Of a DNA stretch of 7,837 nucleotides, positions 99-7,803 are shown piece by piece. The notes beneath the pieces were generated by a model. That model ran no database searches. It saw only the letters and a list, made by a program, of their open reading frames with translations, and was not told the DNA's origin. The DNA is taken from IMG/VR virus record IMGVR_UViG_2711768019_000001. The stretch is one strand, 5' to 3'. Source of the stretch: a virus (lineage: Duplodnaviria > Heunggongvirae > Uroviricota > Caudoviricetes). Position numbers and translations under genes: made by a program. Position 1 is the stretch's first letter. Each line of letters opens with the position of its first letter.

Positions 99-605
99 TT
101 AAATCTTCCAGGAAATTTCTGCATTGCCGTCAGCATCACCGGCACCTGTGAATTCAGCGTTGGTCAGCACCACGTTTTTGCCACTGACTGACGTGGACAT
201 GAATCCACCCAGCGGCACTTTGATGGATTCATCAGTGGAGACGACAACGTATACCGGATCGCCTTTTTTGATAGTGCTGGCATCAAAATCAGAACCGAGA
301 TTAACGGTCACGTAGCCACGCTTCATGGCGTCGCCCGGGAAGTTCTTGCCTGTTCCCACCTGGCGAACCATGTCCGGCTGCGACGTGGTCGGATAAGGGC
401 GCACGTAGATCCCCTTCACCTTGTCTGCGGTATCACCATCTGCCAGCGGCACGAAAAAACCGTCATCATCGTATTTACCAGCCAGGCCATAGGCAGCGAA
501 GGCGTTATCGGATTTAAGGACCACCGGTTCGACGGTTAAGTCCTGCGGGCGAGAGACAGCCCCGGCAATGCCAACAGGCATCCGGTACAGAAATACATTA
601 TTCAT
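99..605 (-). CDS. phage head-associated structural protein, 168 aa (possible decoration/cement-type protein; function not assignable from sequence alone)
   Basis: Intact minus-strand ORF. ATG at 603-605 with AAGGGT 6-7 nt upstream; stop TAA at 99-101. Its start lies 3 nt after the TAA of the upstream 406-aa ORF, i.e. tight operon packing. It occupies the slot after portal/MuF/scaffold where decoration or capsid-accessory genes sit in SPP1-type head modules. Confidence 0.6.
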   Translation of the reverse strand: MNNVFLYRMPVGIAGAVSRPQDLTVEPVVLKSDNAFAAYGLAGKYDDDGFFVPLADGDTADKVKGIYVRPYPTTSQPDMVRQVGTGKNFPGDAMKRGYVTVNLGSDFDASTIKKGDPVYVVVSTDESIKVPLGGFMSTSVSGKNVVLTNAEFTGAGDADGNAEISWKI

Positions 606-608
606 TTT

Positions 609-1829
609 TTACCCTTTACGGTTTGCCCAGAATTCAGCGTTTTGTTTGTTCAGGGAAGCGATACTGGTCATGCCCATGTTTAGGCGCTGTGCATCGCCGG
701 TGGTGGCGCGGGTGTTTCGCCCTTTGGCAACCTCAGACACGGCATTAAACGCCATGTCGACCGATTGTTTCGGTAATTTGCGGATATCCGCATCACCGAC
801 TATCTGGCGAACCAGCGTTTTGTCAGCAGAAGCCAGAACCTCGCGTTTGAACGCGGTCGGTTTCATCTTACGGCTCAGATCGATACCCGGAACGATAACT
901 TCGGCACGCCAGGCTGAGTCACCAGTAATCGTGGTTTCCTCTTCATCGTCCTCGCCGTCACCGGTCGGATTATCGTCAGGCTTATTATCGTTATCGCCCG
1001 TGGCATTTCTTTCCAGCTTAGCCAGCAGGGCTTTCAGTAATGTTTTGAGGTCATCATCACTGTCGCCGGTTGGATCTCCGCCCATCTCTGGTGCTTTGTC
1101 CGGTAGTGGTTGCTGCGGGGACAGGTTGATGTTGAGATTAACGCCCTGCGGCAAATCCCCCTCATCTCCTGTAACCGATGCGGGAGCCGACTCCACCAGT
1201 TCGTTCATGGTGTCGGCATCTCCTGTCTTGATGGCCGCACGCATGCGGTTCCACCAGTTTTTCTTTTGATTTGCCATTGTGTCTCTGTCTCCAATTGCAC
1301 AACGATTTCCGGCTCTGCCTTTAGGGACAAGAGCCACATGGTTTCCGGTAATATCGACCTGCTCGGCTTTACCTGGCTCGGTCTGCTCGTACTCCGCGTC
1401 ATAGCCGCACGACACTTCGCGCAGGCCATCTTCGATAAGCTGAATGGCGCTTTCGTCTTTGACGATAAGGTCAGCCAGCATCAAATCAGACTGCTCACCC
1501 GTCCCGCGCCGGACATTCTGGAGGTGCCCGACAGCAAGCTCTTTCCAGTTCTCGGGATTTACCAGCCGCACATTCCCGTTTTCATCTTCAGGATGCAGGA
1601 TCGTGATGCTCATCCCTTCGAATGAGGCAAGCGTGGCCGGATGGAATACCTGCTCAGGAGAACGCGTGACGACTATTTCACCGAACTTATCGGGTTTCAG
1701 TTTTGGCAGGTCATCAGCACCATAGAGCTGCTTACCTGTTCGTCCTATCGGCACGTCTTTGCACAGCAACGAGCCGTCAGCCAGGCGGTATCGGGTTTCC
1801 CCGAGCCTGGTCTCAAAAAAGTATTTCAT
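609..1829 (-). CDS. putative scaffolding / prohead-core protein, 406 aa, with a central Asp/Gly/Glu-rich low-complexity linker
   Basis: Intact minus-strand ORF. ATG at 1827-1829 lies 3 nt after the TAA stop (1833-1835) of the MuF-like gene; stop TAA at 609-611. Globular-looking N-terminal ~190 aa, acidic low-complexity region at about residues 201-306 (nt ~912-1229), then a basic/helical C-terminal region. Function is inferred from position and composition only. Confidence 0.6.
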   Translation of the reverse strand: MKYFFETRLGETRYRLADGSLLCKDVPIGRTGKQLYGADDLPKLKPDKFGEIVVTRSPEQVFHPATLASFEGMSITILHPEDENGNVRLVNPENWKELAVGHLQNVRRGTGEQSDLMLADLIVKDESAIQLIEDGLREVSCGYDAEYEQTEPGKAEQVDITGNHVALVPKGRAGNRCAIGDRDTMANQKKNWWNRMRAAIKTGDADTMNELVESAPASVTGDEGDLPQGVNLNINLSPQQPLPDKAPEMGGDPTGDSDDDLKTLLKALLAKLERNATGDNDNKPDDNPTGDGEDDEEETTITGDSAWRAEVIVPGIDLSRKMKPTAFKREVLASADKTLVRQIVGDADIRKLPKQSVDMAFNAVSEVAKGRNTRATTGDAQRLNMGMTSIASLNKQNAEFWANRKG

Positions 1830-1832
1830 GGG

Positions 1833-2615
1833 TTATGCTGCCCTTTTCATTGCGAATGGAACGCGAACAAACACGATCTCTTTATAGCAGCGGCAGTTTG
1901 GCAGCTCGCCCGCGTGGCCGGTCATGCCGTCCAAAGTTGGAGGTGAATCCCAGCGGACGAATTTACCTTTCATGTGATCGTGGGAATCTCGGACATCGCC
2001 ATCATCGGCTGTACGCCAAATATAACCATCCGAGCCAATAGCTATCGCTCGGGCCATATCCAGCGCGCCCGTTGCTCTTCCCAGTTCCGTTCGGGCAATC
2101 AGATCGGCCCTAGACTTAGCAACATCGCCGGTAGATGCAATCTCTTTAGCAAACTGCTCCGCCCGACCACCGGTGACAACAGCCTCTATCGCTTTGTTCT
2201 GGATGTCGTACACCCTGTCTGCGGCCTCGAGAGGCAGAGATTTGATGTACTTGACCTGTTCGGCGATGATGGATTGCATCACCTGGCCCACAGGAGCGCT
2301 TTCCACAAGATTGCGGAGCTCGCGACTGATGTTCTTGCTGTGTTGCCGCCAAACTTTCTCGTTCTGCCGGGTTAGGTCCGCAGTAAAGTTTTCCGCGACC
2401 TTTGTCGCCCAGGGGGTGATGATTTCACTGTAACGCTCCAGCGCCGCAATAATTTCCGTGATACTGTCATTTGAACCATCGTAGCGACCATTTACGATGT
2501 CTCCGACCGCCCTCGCTATCCTGCGTAGGCTGGTTCGATACCGGATTTCCGCCTGACGGCTCCTGCGGTTCGTCATCAGGTTCGCCGATGCCGGGCGGCG
2601 CTTCATCTTCGGCAT
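1833..2615 (-). CDS. phage head morphogenesis protein, Mu F / SPP1 gp7 family (minor head protein)
   Basis: 260-aa intact ORF directly downstream of the portal gene, which is the conserved gp6-gp7 arrangement. C-terminal region carries a Cys-x-Cys motif (ELPNCRCYKE) as recalled for this family. ATG at 2613-2615 has GAGGA 8 nt upstream. The start is uncertain because this ATG makes a 149-nt overlap with the portal 3' end; later in-frame ATGs exist at 2604-2606 and 2574-2576. Confidence 0.8.
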   Translation of the reverse strand: MPKMKRRPASANLMTNRRSRQAEIRYRTSLRRIARAVGDIVNGRYDGSNDSITEIIAALERYSEIITPWATKVAENFTADLTRQNEKVWRQHSKNISRELRNLVESAPVGQVMQSIIAEQVKYIKSLPLEAADRVYDIQNKAIEAVVTGGRAEQFAKEIASTGDVAKSRADLIARTELGRATGALDMARAIAIGSDGYIWRTADDGDVRDSHDHMKGKFVRWDSPPTLDGMTGHAGELPNCRCYKEIVFVRVPFAMKRAA

Positions 2616-3933
2616 TCTCGATGTCCTCGTCGGTAATGGATGCCCCGATGCCGGTTACGTCAGAATTTTCTCGCAAATCAGTCATAGCGGCTTTCAGTGT
2701 CATCAGACCATCACCCAGCGCCGTACTGATTGCGTTGGTGGTGTTTAACGCCACCGTTGAGCGATCGACATCAGACATTTGCCAGAGCGGGTTAAACTCA
2801 AACGTGAAATCGTCCGGCAGCGGCTTGCCAAGTTCCGAACGATGCATGATGTCCAGTATCCGCCGCACCGGAAGACGTAAACGCCTCTCCTGCAACGAAC
2901 TGATGCGATCGTAATAGTTGGCAAGGTCTGCATCACCGGTAGAAAATCCTTTCGGGGACTGTCCGAACAACCGCACCAGTGGGATACCAACAGCGCCACT
3001 AATCTGTTCTACAAACTGCGAAAGGATGTCATCCAGACCACTGAAGCTGTACTGATGGGTTTCAAACTTATCCCGCGAGTCCATGAGCGTCATGCCTTCA
3101 TTACTCTGGAACTGTCGAATCAGGTCGATATTCTTCAGCAACGCTTCATACGCAGGACCACCAAGTGCGATAAGCTCGCGTAGCTTCTCCACGCTGTAGG
3201 TACGCAAATGCGCCTTGTAGACCAGCTGCGCCGCGCCGACAGTAGCGCTGTCGAACGCGGTAAGACGATCCCAGATACGCTCTACAACCGACATTCCCCA
3301 TTCGTTCTCGGTCATCTTCTGCTGAAATGGCAACGTGACGCCATCAAAGCGAATCAGGCGACTGTGATGAATGCGCCAGGCAGGAATTCCCGTTGCTGTG
3401 GTCACCACATCGTAAAACTCAGGTTTACCCAGGTCCGGCCCCATATCTTTAATGCGGCGGGTCAGTGCCGGGTCGACCATCCAGCGGTCGAGCGGGAGAA
3501 TCCCCTTAAACTTGCCCTTACCGATGGTTTCGGGTCGCAGCGGGGTCATTGGTGCCTACCCCTCAATCATGATGAAACCCACCGCGCCGCCGTAGAGGCG
3601 CGACCATTTCAGCACGTCATTCAGCGCATCCCAGATTTGCAACTCATCCAGTTGTGATTCGAGAATGCCACGATCTTTTGCATCAATTTCCGAAGTGATG
3701 CGAATGCCTTTGCGGGTCATATCATCCGGGATAGCATCGACTGCTTCGCCGATGATCTAGGATGAACGATAGGACCATTCCACCAGCATGCGGTTACGAC
3801 TGGTGAAATTAGCCCGGTAGGTGGATGCTGAGTGCTGGTTAGGTGTCTGCATCCCTACGCGGGCAATAAAATTCTCATAACCATCAGCTGTGGCCTGCAC
3901 AGTTCGCCGCAGGGCTTGTTTGTTTCGTGCCAT
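2467..3933 (-). pseudogene. phage portal protein gene (SPP1 gp6-like), single 489-codon frame interrupted by two in-frame TAG codons at 3757-3759 and 3556-3558; longest uninterrupted segment is 2467-3549
   Basis: Minus-strand ATG at 3931-3933 overlaps the terL stop TGA (3933-3935) by one base, a typical coupled start. Translation gives MARNKQALRRTVQATADGYENFIARVGMQTPNQHSASTYRANFTSRNRMLVEWSYRSS, then TAG, then 66 sense codons (IIGEAVDAIPDDMTRKGIRITSEIDAKDRGILESQLDELQIWDALNDVLKWSRLYGGAVGFIMIEG), then TAG, then AP followed by the 360-aa ORF MTPLRPETIGKG...WFK ending at TGA 2467-2469. All three pieces are in the same frame with no indels. Acidic C-terminal tail and position between terL and the MuF-like gene support a portal. 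Typed pseudogene because the sequence as given cannot make full-length protein without stop suppression. Confidence 0.8.
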
Positions 3934-5363
3934 CAGGCCTGTCTCCCCAGCTGTTCCCAGATATCCAGCGATGTATCGATTGGCGCGAAGGCCATAATGA
4001 ATGCATCAGCAACGTTTGGTGACGGTATCTCGCGTTTTGCGAGGTCTTTTTTACTTTCGACCATCACACGTCCGTTACGGTCGAAATCACGATGAGGTGT
4101 TGTCAGTTCCAGTTTCAGCTTTTCAAGCAACGGACAACGAGAATCTATGCTGATCAGCTCATCCACAGGATACTGTTCTCCGTTGTTAATGGCGTTAAAC
4201 GTATTTCTGAAACGGTCAGCCACCAGCCACCATGCCTGAGCCTTAAGATTTGCGAAAAAGTCTTTGTTGGGGATGCCGTTGTACTCGTCATCTGGCTCAT
4301 GCACACCAGCACCGGCGTTAAACCTCTGGTAATTCACACGTCGCGCGTATGCGTTCTCGCTCTTCCGGTCAGCGTTAATTTCAGAGAATTTAGCACCGGC
4401 AGACGCACCAACACCGATAGAGTCGTAAACAATATCTGCTTCACGCTCCAGCGCCGCCTGATAAGTACGCTGGCAGCTCTTCAGTAATTCATCTTCTTTG
4501 GCCTTCCATTCGTCGGCCCAGAAAACAACGGATCCGTGACGGTAAACGTTAGCGCACTTATCTGTACCACTGTCAGCCACGTCAAAGCCAATACGCTTTC
4601 TTCCACTGGGTTCGAAATTTAACGTTTTGTGCGCATCCACTGCGGCTTCTATCCAAGACAGTTTGATGATTGCCGCATCATCATCAGACTCCGGAACGCC
4701 CTCATACACATGTTTAAAACCATCCGGATCACGGCGTCGCGCCGCGTCGATAACCTTAAGCATGGTGTCAGACAGAAACGGATTTTCGTCATAGTTAATT
4801 TTGCGGATGAGAGTGCCTTCGGGCGGATCAACAACGAAGTTGCGCCAGACGAAATCAGTAACAAGTCCGGGGTTGAATATGAACCAGCATTCCGAACCCT
4901 CTTTACGGATCGTTGGCTCCAGAATTTTCCACTGGTATTCCGTCAGTGCGTGGGCTTCTTCCAGCCACAACACATCGATCCCCTCCAGTGACTTAATTTC
5001 TTCGATGTTGCGCCATAATCCATAAAAAACAAATTCCGAGCCAGTAACCCGGTTAATGATTTTGTTGTTCAGAATACGGAAACGGTGCCGCAGACCAAAC
5101 CTGTCTATCTGAATTTTGAGCAGGGTATACACCGACTCTTCGATTTTATTCTGGATCTGACGGGCACAACAAAAACGCAGGGTGTATTTATTCGACAGAA
5201 ATATGGCAATGCCAGCGGCATCCCATGATTTTGACGATGACCGACCACCATAAAGCACTTTGTTACGTGCCCGCATAGTCCAGAAACTACGTAAAGCCGG
5301 ATTCAGCGTCGGTTTGGATGTCAGAGTAGAAGTCATTGAGGTCACGCTCTCCATTGCCATCAT
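3933..5363 (-). CDS. terL: terminase large subunit, PBSX/SPP1-type (N-terminal ATPase, C-terminal nuclease)
   Basis: Six-frame ORF 3933-5444. Walker A-like motif YGGRSSSKSW near the N-terminus and Walker B-like VLWLEEAH, with a long C-terminal domain typical of terminase nuclease. Stop TGA at 3933-3935. Start most likely an internal ATG (5361-5363, 5352-5354 or 5334-5336) rather than 5444, which would overlap terS by 158 nt; AGGT lies 5 nt upstream of the ATG at 5363, GGAGAG 11 nt upstream of the ATG at 5336. Exact start is uncertain. Confidence 0.9.
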   Translation of the reverse strand: MMAMESVTSMTSTLTSKPTLNPALRSFWTMRARNKVLYGGRSSSKSWDAAGIAIFLSNKYTLRFCCARQIQNKIEESVYTLLKIQIDRFGLRHRFRILNNKIINRVTGSEFVFYGLWRNIEEIKSLEGIDVLWLEEAHALTEYQWKILEPTIRKEGSECWFIFNPGLVTDFVWRNFVVDPPEGTLIRKINYDENPFLSDTMLKVIDAARRRDPDGFKHVYEGVPESDDDAAIIKLSWIEAAVDAHKTLNFEPSGRKRIGFDVADSGTDKCANVYRHGSVVFWADEWKAKEDELLKSCQRTYQAALEREADIVYDSIGVGASAGAKFSEINADRKSENAYARRVNYQRFNAGAGVHEPDDEYNGIPNKDFFANLKAQAWWLVADRFRNTFNAINNGEQYPVDELISIDSRCPLLEKLKLELTTPHRDFDRNGRVMVESKKDLAKREIPSPNVADAFIMAFAPIDTSLDIWEQLGRQA

Positions 5364-6051
5364 CAATACCTGCATCACGGCGAAGACGATCAGCCTCCAG
5401 AGACACCTTATCAGTGGCGGCCTTGCGGTAGGCTGTATCAGCAAATATTTTTCCTACCGTCGCAAGCGTGCCAACGATGGACTCAATACGAACTGTATTG
5501 CGCATCATTGCTTTCTCGGCGGCGCTGATATTTTCAATCAGCATCTTCCTTTCCTGGTCCCCATTAGCATCTTCCAGCGACACCAACCACCGACCAATAT
5601 TCTCTGCAGCGACAAGGTTGTTAGCACGAAGGCGAAATAATTCGTCCTCGAGCGTCAACGCTTTAGCGTCCTCTATCACCTCATCTTTGAGCAGAAGGCG
5701 ACGGGCATAACCACCGTGTTTTAATGCCTGCTGGTTACCGGGTTGGAATGGGTTAGTCGGGGGATCGGTACGCATTCCGCGTATCGGTTTCGTATCCGGT
5801 GTAGATTCTGTTTTTAGTTGCGTACTTTTTTGTGTAAGGCCAGTAATGGCAGGCTTTCTGCTGGTACGCACTTTCCTTTTTTGCGTACCATTTTTGCAAA
5901 CCTGCGTACCGCCACTGCGTGCCCAACCAAGCTTTTTGGCCCTCTTCCTGATAGCCCCTTCTGTAACGCCGTATTTCTCGCCTATATCACGGAGGCTAAG
6001 GACTCCGGCCCGGTATGCCGATTCGATGGCCTCCCAGTCCGGTTTTGCCAT
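5287..6051 (-). CDS. terS: terminase small subunit, 254 aa, with N-terminal helix-turn-helix DNA-binding region
   Basis: Intact ORF immediately upstream of terL. N-terminus MAKPDWEAIESAYRAGVLSLRDIGEKYGVTEGAIRKRAKKLGW is HTH-like, as in many small terminase subunits. ATG at 6049-6051 with AGGAAG 7 nt upstream; stop TAG at 5287-5289. Confidence 0.8.
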   Translation of the reverse strand: MAKPDWEAIESAYRAGVLSLRDIGEKYGVTEGAIRKRAKKLGWARSGGTQVCKNGTQKRKVRTSRKPAITGLTQKSTQLKTESTPDTKPIRGMRTDPPTNPFQPGNQQALKHGGYARRLLLKDEVIEDAKALTLEDELFRLRANNLVAAENIGRWLVSLEDANGDQERKMLIENISAAEKAMMRNTVRIESIVGTLATVGKIFADTAYRKAATDKVSLEADRLRRDAGIDDGNGERDLNDFYSDIQTDAESGFT

Positions 6052-6165: not shown

Positions 6166-6195
6166 TTGTAAATGTAAGGTGTTTAAGCCTAAATT
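6166..6195 (+). promoter_or_regulatory. candidate sigma70 promoter for the DedA/YqaA-like gene (TTGTAA, 18-bp spacer, TAAATT)
   Basis: Hexamers read directly in the divergent intergenic region 6052-6248, about 55 nt upstream of the ATG at 6249. Weak match to consensus; no experimental support. Confidence 0.2.
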
Positions 6196-6248
6196 AAGTC
6201 GTATCACGGTTAAATAGCAAAGAAAAATTCACAGAAGGAAAGACATTG

Positions 6249-6758
6249 ATGGAGTGGATAAATGCTTTGATGAACTATTTTGTACTTCATCCATATCGCC
6301 TATGGGGGCTTCTTTTTATAATAGCGTTCACAAAATCCACTTTACTCATTTCGGCGATATTGCCACCAGCATCAATTATGATGGCCACTGTAATTACAGT
6401 CAGCAAGACGACTCTTTCACCATGGGAAGCTGGAATCACGGTCATGAGTGGCGCATGGTGCGGTACTATCGTTAATTACCATCTTGGTATAATAATTGGG
6501 CATATCCCTCAACTTGCATGTATAATATCAAGCCGTTCCAATACAATAGAACGGGTTCGCCTTCAGTTGCAAAATAACTCTGTGTCAATACTTTTCACTT
6601 CGCGCTTTATCGCCGTGCTGCGTTATATTGCTCCTTTGGTGGCAGGAATGTTGCAACTTCATCCAGTGAAAGTGTATACAGTGAGTCTGATTTCAGCTGC
6701 TAGCTGGTCAGCACTTTATGTTGGTAGTTTTAGCTTCGTGTTGCCTTTTTTTAGCTAA
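6249..6758 (+). CDS. DedA/YqaA-like (VTT/SNARE-associated family) polytopic inner-membrane protein, 169 aa; moron-type accessory gene
   Basis: Only convincing plus-strand gene. ATG at 6249 (the six-frame ORF begins one codon earlier at TTG 6246) with AAGGAA about 8 nt upstream; stop TAA at 6756-6758. Translation is strongly hydrophobic with several predicted TM segments and recalled similarity to E. coli YqaA (ILPPASIMMATVI vs LLPGNSEVVLVAML; SGAWCGTIVNYHLG vs MGNSLGGLTNVILG). Visibly more AT-rich than the flanking structural genes (roughly 40% vs roughly 53% GC by eye) and transcribed against the phage late operon. Confidence 0.6.
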   Translation: MEWINALMNYFVLHPYRLWGLLFIIAFTKSTLLISAILPPASIMMATVITVSKTTLSPWEAGITVMSGAWCGTIVNYHLGIIIGHIPQLACIISSRSNTIERVRLQLQNNSVSILFTSRFIAVLRYIAPLVAGMLQLHPVKVYTVSLISAASWSALYVGSFSFVLPFFS

Positions 6759-6846
6759 ACTGCCCATAAAAAGCTCTTGCGAATCCAGCTTCCCCCATTC
6801 CTCTGACAACAGAATCTGATTTGAAGGATAATGAGTAAAATTACCG

Positions 6847-7095
6847 CTACCCCCCAAGGCATTGGATCCTGATGTACTCCTGAAGCATTCTCAATGCTGT
6901 CTGGTCGCTGATGATTCCGTCCCGGATACCGAGAACGTTTCGTCCAGCAACTGGAGAGAGTTCGACGGTGGCATCATTGCCCATGCCGGAGGCGCTGGAG
7001 GTTTCGGCTGAGGATGGCACAGGGCATTTTCCTTTGACGAGCACCCGACCACCATTATCAAGCTTGCGCCGAAGAGCATCATTTTCAGCTTTCGC
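6847..7095 (-). CDS. Rz: Rz-type i-spanin, C-terminal part only (5' end lies in the N gap)
   Basis: Translation from the gap edge reads AKAENDALRRKLDNGGRVLVKGKCPVPSSAETSSASGMGNDATVELSPVAGRNVLGIRDGIISDQTALRMLQEYIRIQCLGG. AKAENDALR matches the lambda Rz motif (ADAKAENDALRDD) and the C-terminus resembles P22 gp15 (YLQEYIRSQCLK), both recalled from memory. Stop TAG at 6847-6849 followed one codon later by TAA. Confidence 0.8.
   Translation of the reverse strand, partial: AKAENDALRRKLDNGGRVLVKGKCPVPSSAETSSASGMGNDATVELSPVAGRNVLGIRDGIISDQTALRMLQEYIRIQCLGG
6891..7082 (-). CDS. Rz1: Rz1-type o-spanin lipoprotein, embedded in the +1 frame of Rz; true start probably just inside the N gap
   Basis: Translation MMLFGASLIMVVGCSSKENALCHPQPKPPAPPAWAMMPP... 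has a lipobox (VVGC) and a proline-rich segment matching lambda Rz1 (LVVVGCTSKQ...CVKPPPPPAWIMQPP, from memory). Upstream in-frame codons before the gap read RKLKMML, like the lambda Rz1 N-terminus MLKLKMML. Stop TGA at 6891-6893. Confidence 0.8.
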   Translation of the reverse strand: MMLFGASLIMVVGCSSKENALCHPQPKPPAPPAWAMMPPSNSLQLLDETFSVSGTESSATRQH

Positions 7096-7630
7096 NNNNN
7101 NNNNNNNNNNNNNNNNNNNNNNNNNNNNNNNNNNNNNNNNNNNNNNNNNNNNNNNNNNNNNNNNNNNNNNNNNNNNNNNNNNNNNNNNNNNNNNNNNNNN
7201 NNNNNNNNNNNNNNNNNNNNNNNNNNNNNNNNNNNNNNNNNNNNNNNNNNNNNNNNNNNNNNNNNNNNNNNNNNNNNNNNNNNNNNNNNNNNNNNNNNNN
7301 NNNNNNNNNNNNNNNNNNNNNNNNNNNNNNNNNNNNNNNNNNNNNNNNNNNNNNNNNNNNNNNNNNNNNNNNNNNNNNNNNNNNNNNNNNNNNNNNNNNN
7401 NNNNNNNNNNNNNNNNNNNNNNNNNNNNNNNNNNNNNNNNNNNNNNNNNNNNNNNNNNNNNNNNNNNNNNNNNNNNNNNNNNNNNNNNNNNNNNNNNNNN
7501 NNNNNNNNNNNNNNNNNNNNNNNNNNNNNNNNNNNNNNNNNNNNNNNNNNNNNNNNNNNNNNNNNNNNNNNNNNNNNNNNNNNNNNNNNNNNNNNNNNNN
7601 NNNNNNNNNNNNNNNNNNNNNNNNNNNNNN
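7096..7630. other. assembly gap (535 N) within the lysis cassette
   Basis: Uninterrupted run of n. The six-frame ORFs drawn through it (poly-X) are artefacts. From typical gene sizes (inference) the gap should contain the endolysin body and the Rz and Rz1 starts. Confidence 0.99.
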
Positions 7631-7729
7631 ACCATCGTTACCACCTGGGCCAGTGATTAACACAGATGCTATAGCAACAGCCCCGCCACCAATAGCAACT
7701 GCAACAGCCTTGCGTAATGATGGCGACAT
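7631..7729 (-). CDS. SAR (signal-arrest-release) endolysin, phage 21 R21-like, N-terminal 33 codons only (remainder lies in the N gap)
   Basis: ATG at 7727-7729 with GAGAGGTG 6 nt upstream. Translation [33 protein letters not shown] is a basic N-terminus followed by a Gly/Ala-rich weakly hydrophobic segment, the hallmark of SAR domains, and closely resembles my recollection of the phage 21 R21 N-terminus ([33 protein letters not shown]). The downstream Rz/Rz1 pair fits a lysis cassette. Confidence 0.7.
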
Positions 7730-7783
7730 TATTCACCTCTCGCAGCCTTACTAGACTGGCCCCCTGAATCTCCAGACAACCAG

Positions 7784-7803
7784 TATCACTTAAATAAGTG
7801 ATA
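7784..7803. promoter_or_regulatory. inverted repeat TATCACTTA-AA-TAAGTGATA (9-bp arms, 2-bp spacer) in the leader upstream of the endolysin gene; candidate operator for a dimeric DNA-binding protein
   Basis: Read directly from the sequence. It sits in an 84-nt stretch (7754-7837) with stop codons in all three minus-strand frames. On the minus strand it overlaps a weak sigma70-like promoter candidate: TTAAGA (7810-7805), 17-nt spacer, GATACT (7787-7782). TATCAC/GTGATA half-sites recall lambdoid repressor operators, but the half-site spacing differs from lambda cI sites. Confidence 0.3.

Follow-up and report, generated by a model that had tools for sequence, protein, structure and literature searches.

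A probable moron encoding a DedA-family membrane protein with an unusual active-site signature in a prophage of Shigella and enteroinvasive Escherichia coli

The viral sequence record IMGVR_UViG_2711768019_000001 (IMG/VR; Caudoviricetes) comprises 7,837 nucleotides (nt), a stretch that is referred to below as the window and that represents a prophage late region read on the minus strand. Within it lies a gene for a DedA-type membrane protein, which is the subject of this study. This gene is the sole plus-strand gene among the identifiable genes of the window, all others being encoded on the minus strand (Table 1). The original prediction, made by a model from the letters of the DNA, had placed it in a slot between Rz and the terminase genes and in the opposite orientation to them. 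This is indeed the arrangement that we observed, the gene for the small terminase (TerS) bordering the slot on the left and the Rz gene, which is convergent with the DedA-type gene, on the right. We regard ATG 6249 as the likely start codon, since homologs open with the residues MEW and a GAAGGA motif is located at a spacing of 9 nt. RefSeq, in which the gene is already labelled 'DedA family protein', places the start at TTG 6246, one codon ahead. With relatives in 73 species representatives and a ratio of nonsynonymous to synonymous substitution rates (dN/dS) of 0.16-0.24, this is a real gene and more than a chance open reading frame (ORF).

Earlier work links DedA proteins to the recycling of undecaprenyl phosphate, the distribution of phospholipids, resistance to polymyxin and virulence, and the coupling of their transport is unsettled. 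The product of the window gene matched the Pfam family VTT_dom (PF09335) with 52.4 bits (E 9.2e-14, residues 41-161; gathering score 33.9), and it is strongly hydrophobic, with a grand average of hydropathy (GRAVY) of 0.87. These values, together with an all-helical structural model, bear out the earlier assignment to the polytopic membrane proteins of the DedA/VTT type. When the protein was compared by BLASTP with the eight DedA paralogs of E. coli K-12, taken from NC_000913.3, identity did not exceed 25% for any of them. YabI was the closest paralog (24.6% over 134 amino acids (aa), E 8e-12) and also the nearest outgroup in the tree. The additional label 'YqaA-like' had to be dropped, as YqaA gave no BLASTP match at an E-value limit of 10. 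E. coli YqaA (142 aa) is likewise a short protein of the DedA superfamily that lacks the extra terminal helices, but in view of the missing match the shortness of the two proteins is convergent. No curated model covers the subfamily to which the phage protein belongs, the NCBIfam equivalogs for DedA and UptA scoring below their cutoffs; the DedA equivalog PRK10847, for example, reached 31 bits against a cutoff of 236.

Residue equivalences were read from a MAFFT alignment with YqjA, YghB, DedA, YabI and YohD. Both arginines of re-entrant loop 2 are kept, R119 and R125 corresponding to R130 and R136 of YqjA and to R112 and R118 of UptA. Among 57 aligned relatives R125 is invariant, and position 119 is occupied by Arg in 56 and by Lys in the other one. 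In re-entrant loop 1, which holds K29/S30/T31 and P39/P40/A41/S42, the YqjA residue E39 is replaced by K29, and G50-D51 of the YqjA motif LPGDS are replaced by P40-A41, giving LPPAS. The acidic pair of the YqjA type is thus not present, its positions being filled by K29 and A41, while YqjA S52 is retained as S42. The Pro-Gly turn of DedA proteins is not kept in this loop either, although a helix-breaking turn remains in the form of Pro-Pro (P39-P40). In YqjA, E39, D51, R130 and R136 are needed for function and lie at the centre of the modelled dimer, in a putative lipid site, and S52 also matters (bioRxiv 10.64898/2026.09.20.752871). In UptA, R112, R118 and E32 contribute to the binding of undecaprenyl phosphate (C55-P) (PMC11474028). 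The alignment supports a predicted membrane core in which the anion-binding arginines are intact and a third basic residue takes the place of their acidic partner.

The AlphaFold2 (AF2) model, computed from 57 sequences, is all-helical, with a mean predicted local distance difference test score (pLDDT) of 76.9 and a predicted template modelling score of 0.73. Its helices (15-35/41-52, 58-84, 87-109, 111-118/124-134 and 139-168) are compatible with the layout of the DedA domain, loop 1 being the least confident part; this layout consists of re-entrant loop 1, transmembrane helix 1 (TMH1), extramembrane helices, re-entrant loop 2 and TMH2 (bioRxiv 10.1101/2020.12.18.423352). The protein stops directly after TMH2 and does not have the C-terminal helix of the paralogs of 190-255 aa. 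A Foldseek search of BFVD returned only weak matches to giant-virus proteins annotated as 'SNARE-associated' (best E 0.48).

The closest relatives of the phage protein form a small, discrete subfamily, in which the core DedA domain and the two conserved arginines are all that is retained. In a profile search of 5.8 billion proteins, scores were 148 bits or more for members of this clade and 82 bits or less for the DedA proteins that came next, and an exhaustive HMMER search of 1.84 billion representatives at 50% identity found just 12 with E<=1e-30. The signature of re-entrant loop 1 follows the same boundary. In the alignment of 57 sequences, position 29 is Lys in 40/41 and Arg in 1/41 clade members, as opposed to Glu in 15/16 outsiders, and the turn of loop 1 is Pro-Pro in 40/41 clade members versus Pro-Gly in 15/16 outsiders. 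Lys at position 29 was found in 19 of the best 150 matches, all 19 having the K-S-T...L-P-P-A signature and all being clade members or fragments of them; the other 131 had Glu (125), Asp (1) or Gln (1) at this position or were gapped (4). Among the next-best profile matches outside the clade are many proteins of about 650-700 aa (P0106, P0109, P0111 and others of 630-730 aa) in which an N-terminal DedA domain (residues 1-160) is fused to a long C-terminal part.

The distribution of the subfamily was scanned with one genome per GTDB species. This yielded 73 species loci, all in the Enterobacterales, which belong to Enterobacter (many species), Lelliottia, Huaxiibacter, Kosakonia, Citrobacter, Entomohabitans, Morganella, Proteus myxofaciens and Arsenophonus; the profile search added Hafnia. 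In about 30 species of Enterobacter, Lelliottia and Huaxiibacter synteny is conserved, the gene being oriented divergently from an mgtE-like gene that carries an M-box riboswitch ahead of it, and in the Arsenophonus nasoniae group the gene lies in tandem, just upstream of the M-box and mgtE. The GC content (GC) of the gene follows that of the genome, with values of about 0.60 for Enterobacter, 0.33 for A. nasoniae and 0.22 for reduced Arsenophonus genomes, and the neighbour-joining tree agrees with the taxonomy. These sequence comparisons support the view that in Enterobacter, Lelliottia, Morganella and Arsenophonus the gene of this subfamily has its place in the chromosome and is inherited vertically. 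The gene is even kept in Arsenophonus endosymbiont genomes of 0.85-0.93 Mb (L070, L084, L089-L092), and this retention in reduced genomes argues for a housekeeping role there. The M-box (RF00380) was located at L031 7673-7842, L034 7676-7845, L012 10810-10979 and some 30 further loci, and the mgtE-like neighbour is short (about 333 aa), with CBS and MgtE domains. Control of the ancestral gene by the M-box was considered and rejected, as in both arrangements the M-box belongs to the neighbouring mgtE.

In the window, the gene has the profile of an accessory gene, as had been predicted. Its GC is 0.418 and its GC at third codon positions (GC3) 0.382, compared to 0.489-0.552 and 0.50-0.61, respectively, for seven flanking genes, which agrees with the earlier remark that it is poorer in GC than its neighbours. 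Relatives of the window backbone include Salmonella phage SEN34, several induced E. coli myoviruses and prophage-type phages of Klebsiella. Two of the latter, GZ7 and ST16-OXA48phi5.2, have TerS and large terminase (TerL) proteins that are about 84% identical to those of the window, but between their lysis genes and TerS there is no opposite-strand gene, only a small same-strand ORF or almost nothing. Since the opposite-strand gene is missing from these related phages, the definition of a moron fits it by position and by composition. A copy that is 78% identical was found in a Citrobacter youngae prophage, again on the opposite strand and between the lysis genes and the terminase region, although the head and packaging module of that prophage is unrelated (GpA terminase, portal_2, a ClpP-capsid fusion and a GH19 endolysin). 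We therefore regard the gene, with high probability, as a moron of the DedA family that belongs to this subfamily. Neither for the gene nor for its subfamily nor for a phage moron of the DedA type did we find a paper, in keeping with the original prediction, which did not recognise such a moron as described. In the C. youngae prophage the same slot contains more small accessory genes on both strands (L003 8311-9776 and 10736-11005), which encode a DUF6694 protein and ORFs of 119, 161 and 89 aa without a Pfam match.

The tree also bears on the origin of the gene. The Shigella copy nests in a Citrobacter/Kosakonia subclade with a bootstrap of 98/100, and within this subclade the GC of the gene is under the local GC and the contexts vary. 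The gene adjoins dinI in C. meridianamericanus and C. freundii. The C. freundii copy lies beside icd and the ars operon, and the ars operon also flanks the C. youngae prophage; icd is a known prophage integration site, and the C. freundii locus looks like a prophage remnant at an icd attachment site. The reading of the 'chromosomal' Citrobacter copies as the ancestral, non-mobile state is doubtful, given the prophage-type dinI, the icd neighbour and the GC below that of the locus. A C. freundii record, pRHBSTW-00902_4 (NZ_CP056259.1, L114; 82 kb, typed as a plasmid), has the order ars operon, dinI, VTT gene, icd, and because it also has icd, rluE, mnmA, purB and phoPQ it resembles a piece of chromosome. 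The Kosakonia copy has an ordinary chromosomal setting; in K. arachidis (L028 8656-9639) an L,D-transpeptidase gene (YkuD, Ldt_C) is next on the same strand, a neighbour related to peptidoglycan and seen in this genus only.

Alignment of the DNA showed that the unit common to the cassettes consists of the ORF, a 5' flank of about 75 nt and a 3' flank of about 15 nt. As the leader of about 75 nt is conserved with the copies of C. youngae and C. meridianamericanus, it travels with the gene. Compared with shuffled sequences the conserved 75-nt leader had no significant fold (z-score 0.80), no Rfam riboswitch or leader matched in the window between 5900 and 7000, and around the gene there were no flanking direct or inverted repeats of a transposon-type insertion. 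Searches of phage records gave no DNA match to the gene, and by tblastn they gave only matches to canonical DedA proteins (24-30%), in records that, judged from their lengths and the match positions, look like bacterial or induced-prophage contigs. In PHROG there was a weak match to one family of unknown function. Phage reference sets contain hardly any DedA-like proteins.

The gene has been preserved while the prophage around it has decayed. Against the Citrobacter and Kosakonia copies the dN/dS given above indicates purifying selection, and the ORF is intact in 18/18 near-identical copies that differ by 0-3 nt. Contigs with the exact protein number at least 1000 and come from S. flexneri, S. 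sonnei, S. dysenteriae and E. coli. Among complete E. coli genomes 6/5426 have the gene; the surroundings of two of these were inspected and are rich in insertion sequences (IS), one of them containing ipaH. In E. coli FDAARGOS_943, TerL is split by IS2 and the gene for the Mu-F-like head morphogenesis protein (MuF) has an internal stop and is a pseudogene, and in an O121 strain TerS is truncated by IS911. The portal gene of the window (2467-3936, minus strand) has in-frame stops at 3757-3759 and 3556-3558, whereas RefSeq annotates its counterpart in FDAARGOS_943 as intact (488 aa). The two portal stops imply that the prophage of the window is defective, although its DedA-type gene is intact. 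Taken together, these comparisons favour the view that selection retains the gene, with a divergence within Shigella that would be too small as proof alone. At one locus (L109) the gene is bracketed by inverted copies of an IS3-family element, at 6598-7802 and 8672-9876 (orfA 112 aa, orfB 279 aa), which resembles a composite transposon, and at two others (L108, L096) IS or foreign DNA lies directly against it; all three loci keep an intact ORF. The tail-fibre end of the same prophage in E. coli O121 strain 201805972 (NZ_CP119441.1, L002 1-1449) carries ipaHa, a type III secretion system effector gene, so that the cargo of this prophage family in invasive E. coli includes at least two genes.

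Comparison with known systems places the gene and its product more precisely. In lambda, bor lies between Rz and the packaging genes in the opposite orientation; it is expressed in the lysogen, and Bor is a small outer-membrane lipoprotein. The window gene shares the map position and the opposite orientation with bor, but there is no homology, its product is a polytopic inner-membrane protein, and expression from the prophage has been shown for bor alone. At the protein level, YabI shares the predicted re-entrant-loop architecture and the Arg pair, and it also lacks the Asp of the PGD motif (PGT in YabI). It differs in being a chromosomal, not a phage-borne, protein of 254 aa with extra C-terminal helices, and in keeping the membrane Glu (LES) and the Pro-Gly turn. 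YqjA and YghB share the Pfam domain, and R130/R136 and S52 align with R119/R125 and S42, but identity is 22-24%, E39/D51 correspond to K29/A41, and the phage protein is without their C-terminal transmembrane helix. The undecaprenyl-phosphate flippases UptA of Bacillus subtilis and DedA of E. coli belong to the same fold family and have in common with the phage protein the Arg pair that in UptA binds C55-P. In this case the difference lies in the equivalog models (16-20 bits versus 250-300) and in the equivalent of UptA E32, which is Lys in the phage protein.

On the basis of the gene identity, the subfamily, the insertion status, the purifying selection and the retention documented above, we propose that the gene is a prophage moron for a minimal DedA-domain inner-membrane protein that handles anionic lipid to the benefit of the host. 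We give this combined reading a probability of roughly one half, most of the doubt concerning substrate and expression. The carrier would be a lambdoid prophage with a contractile tail, largely defective today and widespread in Shigella and enteroinvasive E. coli, the gene having been captured by temperate phages in the Citrobacter/Kosakonia/Shigella lineage. The lysogen would make the protein independently of the late operon, and the protein would enter the inner membrane with a predicted topology of an N-terminal helix, re-entrant loop 1, TMH1, cytoplasmic helices, re-entrant loop 2 and TMH2, and no extra C-terminal helix. There, Arg119 and Arg125 together with the clade-specific Lys29 could bind and translocate an anionic lipid head group, undecaprenyl phosphate and anionic phospholipid being candidate substrates. 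The absence of a Glu/Asp pair would mean that transport proceeds without the proton coupling that is thought to be typical of YqjA-type proteins, and the presumed outcome would be support of host envelope homeostasis. Several precedents bear on the substrate. In B. subtilis, resistance to MX2401 increases with E. coli DedA and, weakly, with YabI and YqjA (bioRxiv 10.1101/2022.02.03.479048), and PetA handles phosphatidylethanolamine (PMC10193950). Because of these precedents for undecaprenyl phosphate, for weak YabI and YqjA activity and for PetA, the most likely activity, by analogy, is that the protein binds an anionic lipid or polyprenyl phosphate and moves it across the bilayer.

A number of results weigh against this proposal. 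The NCBIfam equivalogs for UptA, NF052604 and NF052605, reached 19.9 bits (cutoff 250) and 16.3 bits (cutoff 300). The acidic positions that are essential in YqjA (E39, D51) or contribute to C55-P binding in UptA (E32) are replaced by K29 and A41, so that the canonical activity may be lost or changed. Confidence in the model is moderate, with a pLDDT of 52-59 in re-entrant loop 1, and a sequence search of the solved structures in the PDB gave only a chance match (E 0.14), and a Foldseek search of the PDB with the AF2 model gave nothing at E<=0.001. The prophage context does not tie the gene to a specific envelope pathway. As for expression, the standard scan revealed no sigma-70 promoter upstream of the gene, no terminator was found downstream of it (terminator scan; fold z-score 1.22 for the 3' region), and an acquired AT-rich gene may be silenced in Shigella. 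The original prediction had credited the gene with its own candidate promoter. A sequence of this kind does exist, as a relaxed sigma-70 scan upstream gave TTGTAA(6166)-18-TAAATT(6195) as its sole match, but with 8/12 positions it stays under the standard threshold, its -35 element falls outside the block that is conserved with the homologous cassettes, and the site is missing from the C. youngae copy. From the gene order, late transcription from the lysis genes crosses the DedA-type gene antisense to reach the terminase genes. Judged from the sequence, expression in the lysogen is plausible.

Other explanations of the gene were weighed against the same data. Other prophage membrane proteins that are encoded in accessory slots block incoming phages, and superinfection exclusion or another anti-phage role, in which a membrane protein made by the prophage blocks DNA entry or the membrane steps of incoming phages, would suit a polytopic membrane protein that occupies the accessory slot in two unrelated prophages and is kept in defective ones. 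Such a role is nonetheless unlikely, since in Enterobacter, Morganella and Arsenophonus the orthologs belong to the chromosome, are inherited vertically and have a conserved synteny that is not of phage type, since endosymbiont genomes below 1 Mb keep the gene even though anti-phage functions are unlikely to persist there, and since the conserved Arg pair indicates the lipid or transport chemistry that is usual in the family; moreover, a search of PADLOC-DB matched 0 defence families at E<=1. In both prophages the gene abuts the lysis cassette, and its product might tune membrane lipids or energisation for the triggering of the holin or of the signal-arrest-release (SAR) endolysin. The strand opposite to the late operon, with late transcription running antisense through the gene, is hard to reconcile with this life-cycle role, related phages lyse without the gene, and most orthologs are chromosomal and unlinked to phages, all of which makes it very improbable.

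A role in the homeostasis of Mg2+ or other divalent cations, in which the protein works with or compensates for Mg2+ transport and the phage copy shifts the cation balance or membrane potential of the lysogen, is suggested by the M-box-mgtE neighbour in its divergent and tandem arrangements. It is also suggested by the finding that the phenotypes of yqjA yghB mutants of Klebsiella and E. coli are rescued by Mg2+ or Ca2+ (PMC10846249). We judge it quite improbable, because the gene is never downstream of the M-box in either arrangement and because an mgtE neighbour is lacking in Morganella, many Arsenophonus, Citrobacter, Kosakonia and both prophages. The adjacency to mgtE may reflect a functional link to Mg2+ homeostasis, or it may be only inherited synteny. 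Finally, the gene could be a silent passenger, a hitch-hiking remnant without a current function that is intact only since the prophage entered Shigella recently. The lack of a convincing promoter, the presence in only 6/5426 complete E. coli genomes and the small differences among near-identical copies, which imply too little time in Shigella for decay to show, all speak for this. Yet over the same period the neighbouring genes were repeatedly hit by IS and nonsense mutations, whereas every one of the 18 gene copies is intact, even when flanked by IS, and the dN/dS on the branch to the Citrobacter and Kosakonia copies indicates constraint up to or after the capture. We hold a silent passenger to be distinctly unlikely, and the proposed handling of anionic lipid in the lysogen remains our preferred interpretation.

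A bolder extension of the lipid-handling proposal appears rather doubtful to us. The clade with K-S-T and P-P-A-S could be a mechanistically distinct kind of DedA protein, with three basic and no acidic core residues, which moves or sequesters an anionic envelope lipid without proton coupling and acts as a lysogenic-conversion factor that was fixed in Shigella by an envelope change relevant to infection or to phages. Examples of such changes, to which the same doubt applies, would be the supply of polyprenyl phosphate for O-antigen or enterobacterial common antigen, and tolerance to bile or cationic peptides. The existence of the gene is not new in view of its RefSeq annotation; with its unusual active-site signature and its connection to Shigella it makes a clean case. 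The original prediction did not contain the absence of the Glu/Asp pair that is essential in YqjA, the discrete chromosomal subfamily in the Enterobacterales or the prior RefSeq label. The clade is a natural variant in which the lipid-binding arginines persist, the conserved membrane Glu has given way to a residue of opposite charge and the Asp is lost, and yet it is under purifying selection, which makes it a ready test of the need for the acidic pair in DedA function. With its presence on at least 1000 contigs of Shigella and enteroinvasive E. coli, the gene is a rare and clean example of a DedA gene that travels as phage cargo, and its role in Shigella envelope biology or phage resistance is approachable with a single deletion mutant. 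If it proves silent or without a phenotype, it is simply another annotated accessory gene.

Table 1. Features of the window. Positions are counted from the first nucleotide of the 7,837-nt stretch.
Feature	Position	Strand	Remarks	Basis
DedA-type gene	6249-6758	+	169-aa product; stop TAA 6756-6758	ORF list, Pfam, alignments
Shine-Dalgarno-like GAAGGA	6234-6239	+	9 nt 5' of ATG 6249	Read from sequence
Upstream leader, about 75 nt	6174-6248	+	Conserved with the Citrobacter youngae prophage and C. meridianamericanus copies	DNA alignment
Candidate sigma-70 promoter, weak: TTGTAA-18-TAAATT	6166-6195	+	8/12	Relaxed scan
Short 3' tail	6759-6775	+	Similarity with homologous cassettes stops here	DNA alignment
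Cement/decoration protein	99-605	-		
DUF2213 protein	609-1829	-		
Mu-F-like head morphogenesis protein (MuF)	1833-2615	-		
Portal	2467-3933	-		
Large terminase TerL	3933-5444	-		
Small terminase TerS	5287-6051	-	Left edge of slot	phrog_370, E 7.5e-95
Rz spanin, C-terminal part	6847-7095	-	Right edge of slot	Pfam Phage_lysis, phrog_13

A run of 535 N at 7096-7630 of the window hides the N-terminal part of Rz, with any embedded Rz1, and most of the endolysin. At a near-identical locus (L105), the sequence through the N run encodes an ordinary Rz and a SAR-type endolysin. The possibility that this locus is the same as the window was rejected, as the two are identical up to the N run but show 146 mismatches after 7630, which makes L105 a close relative with another endolysin allele.

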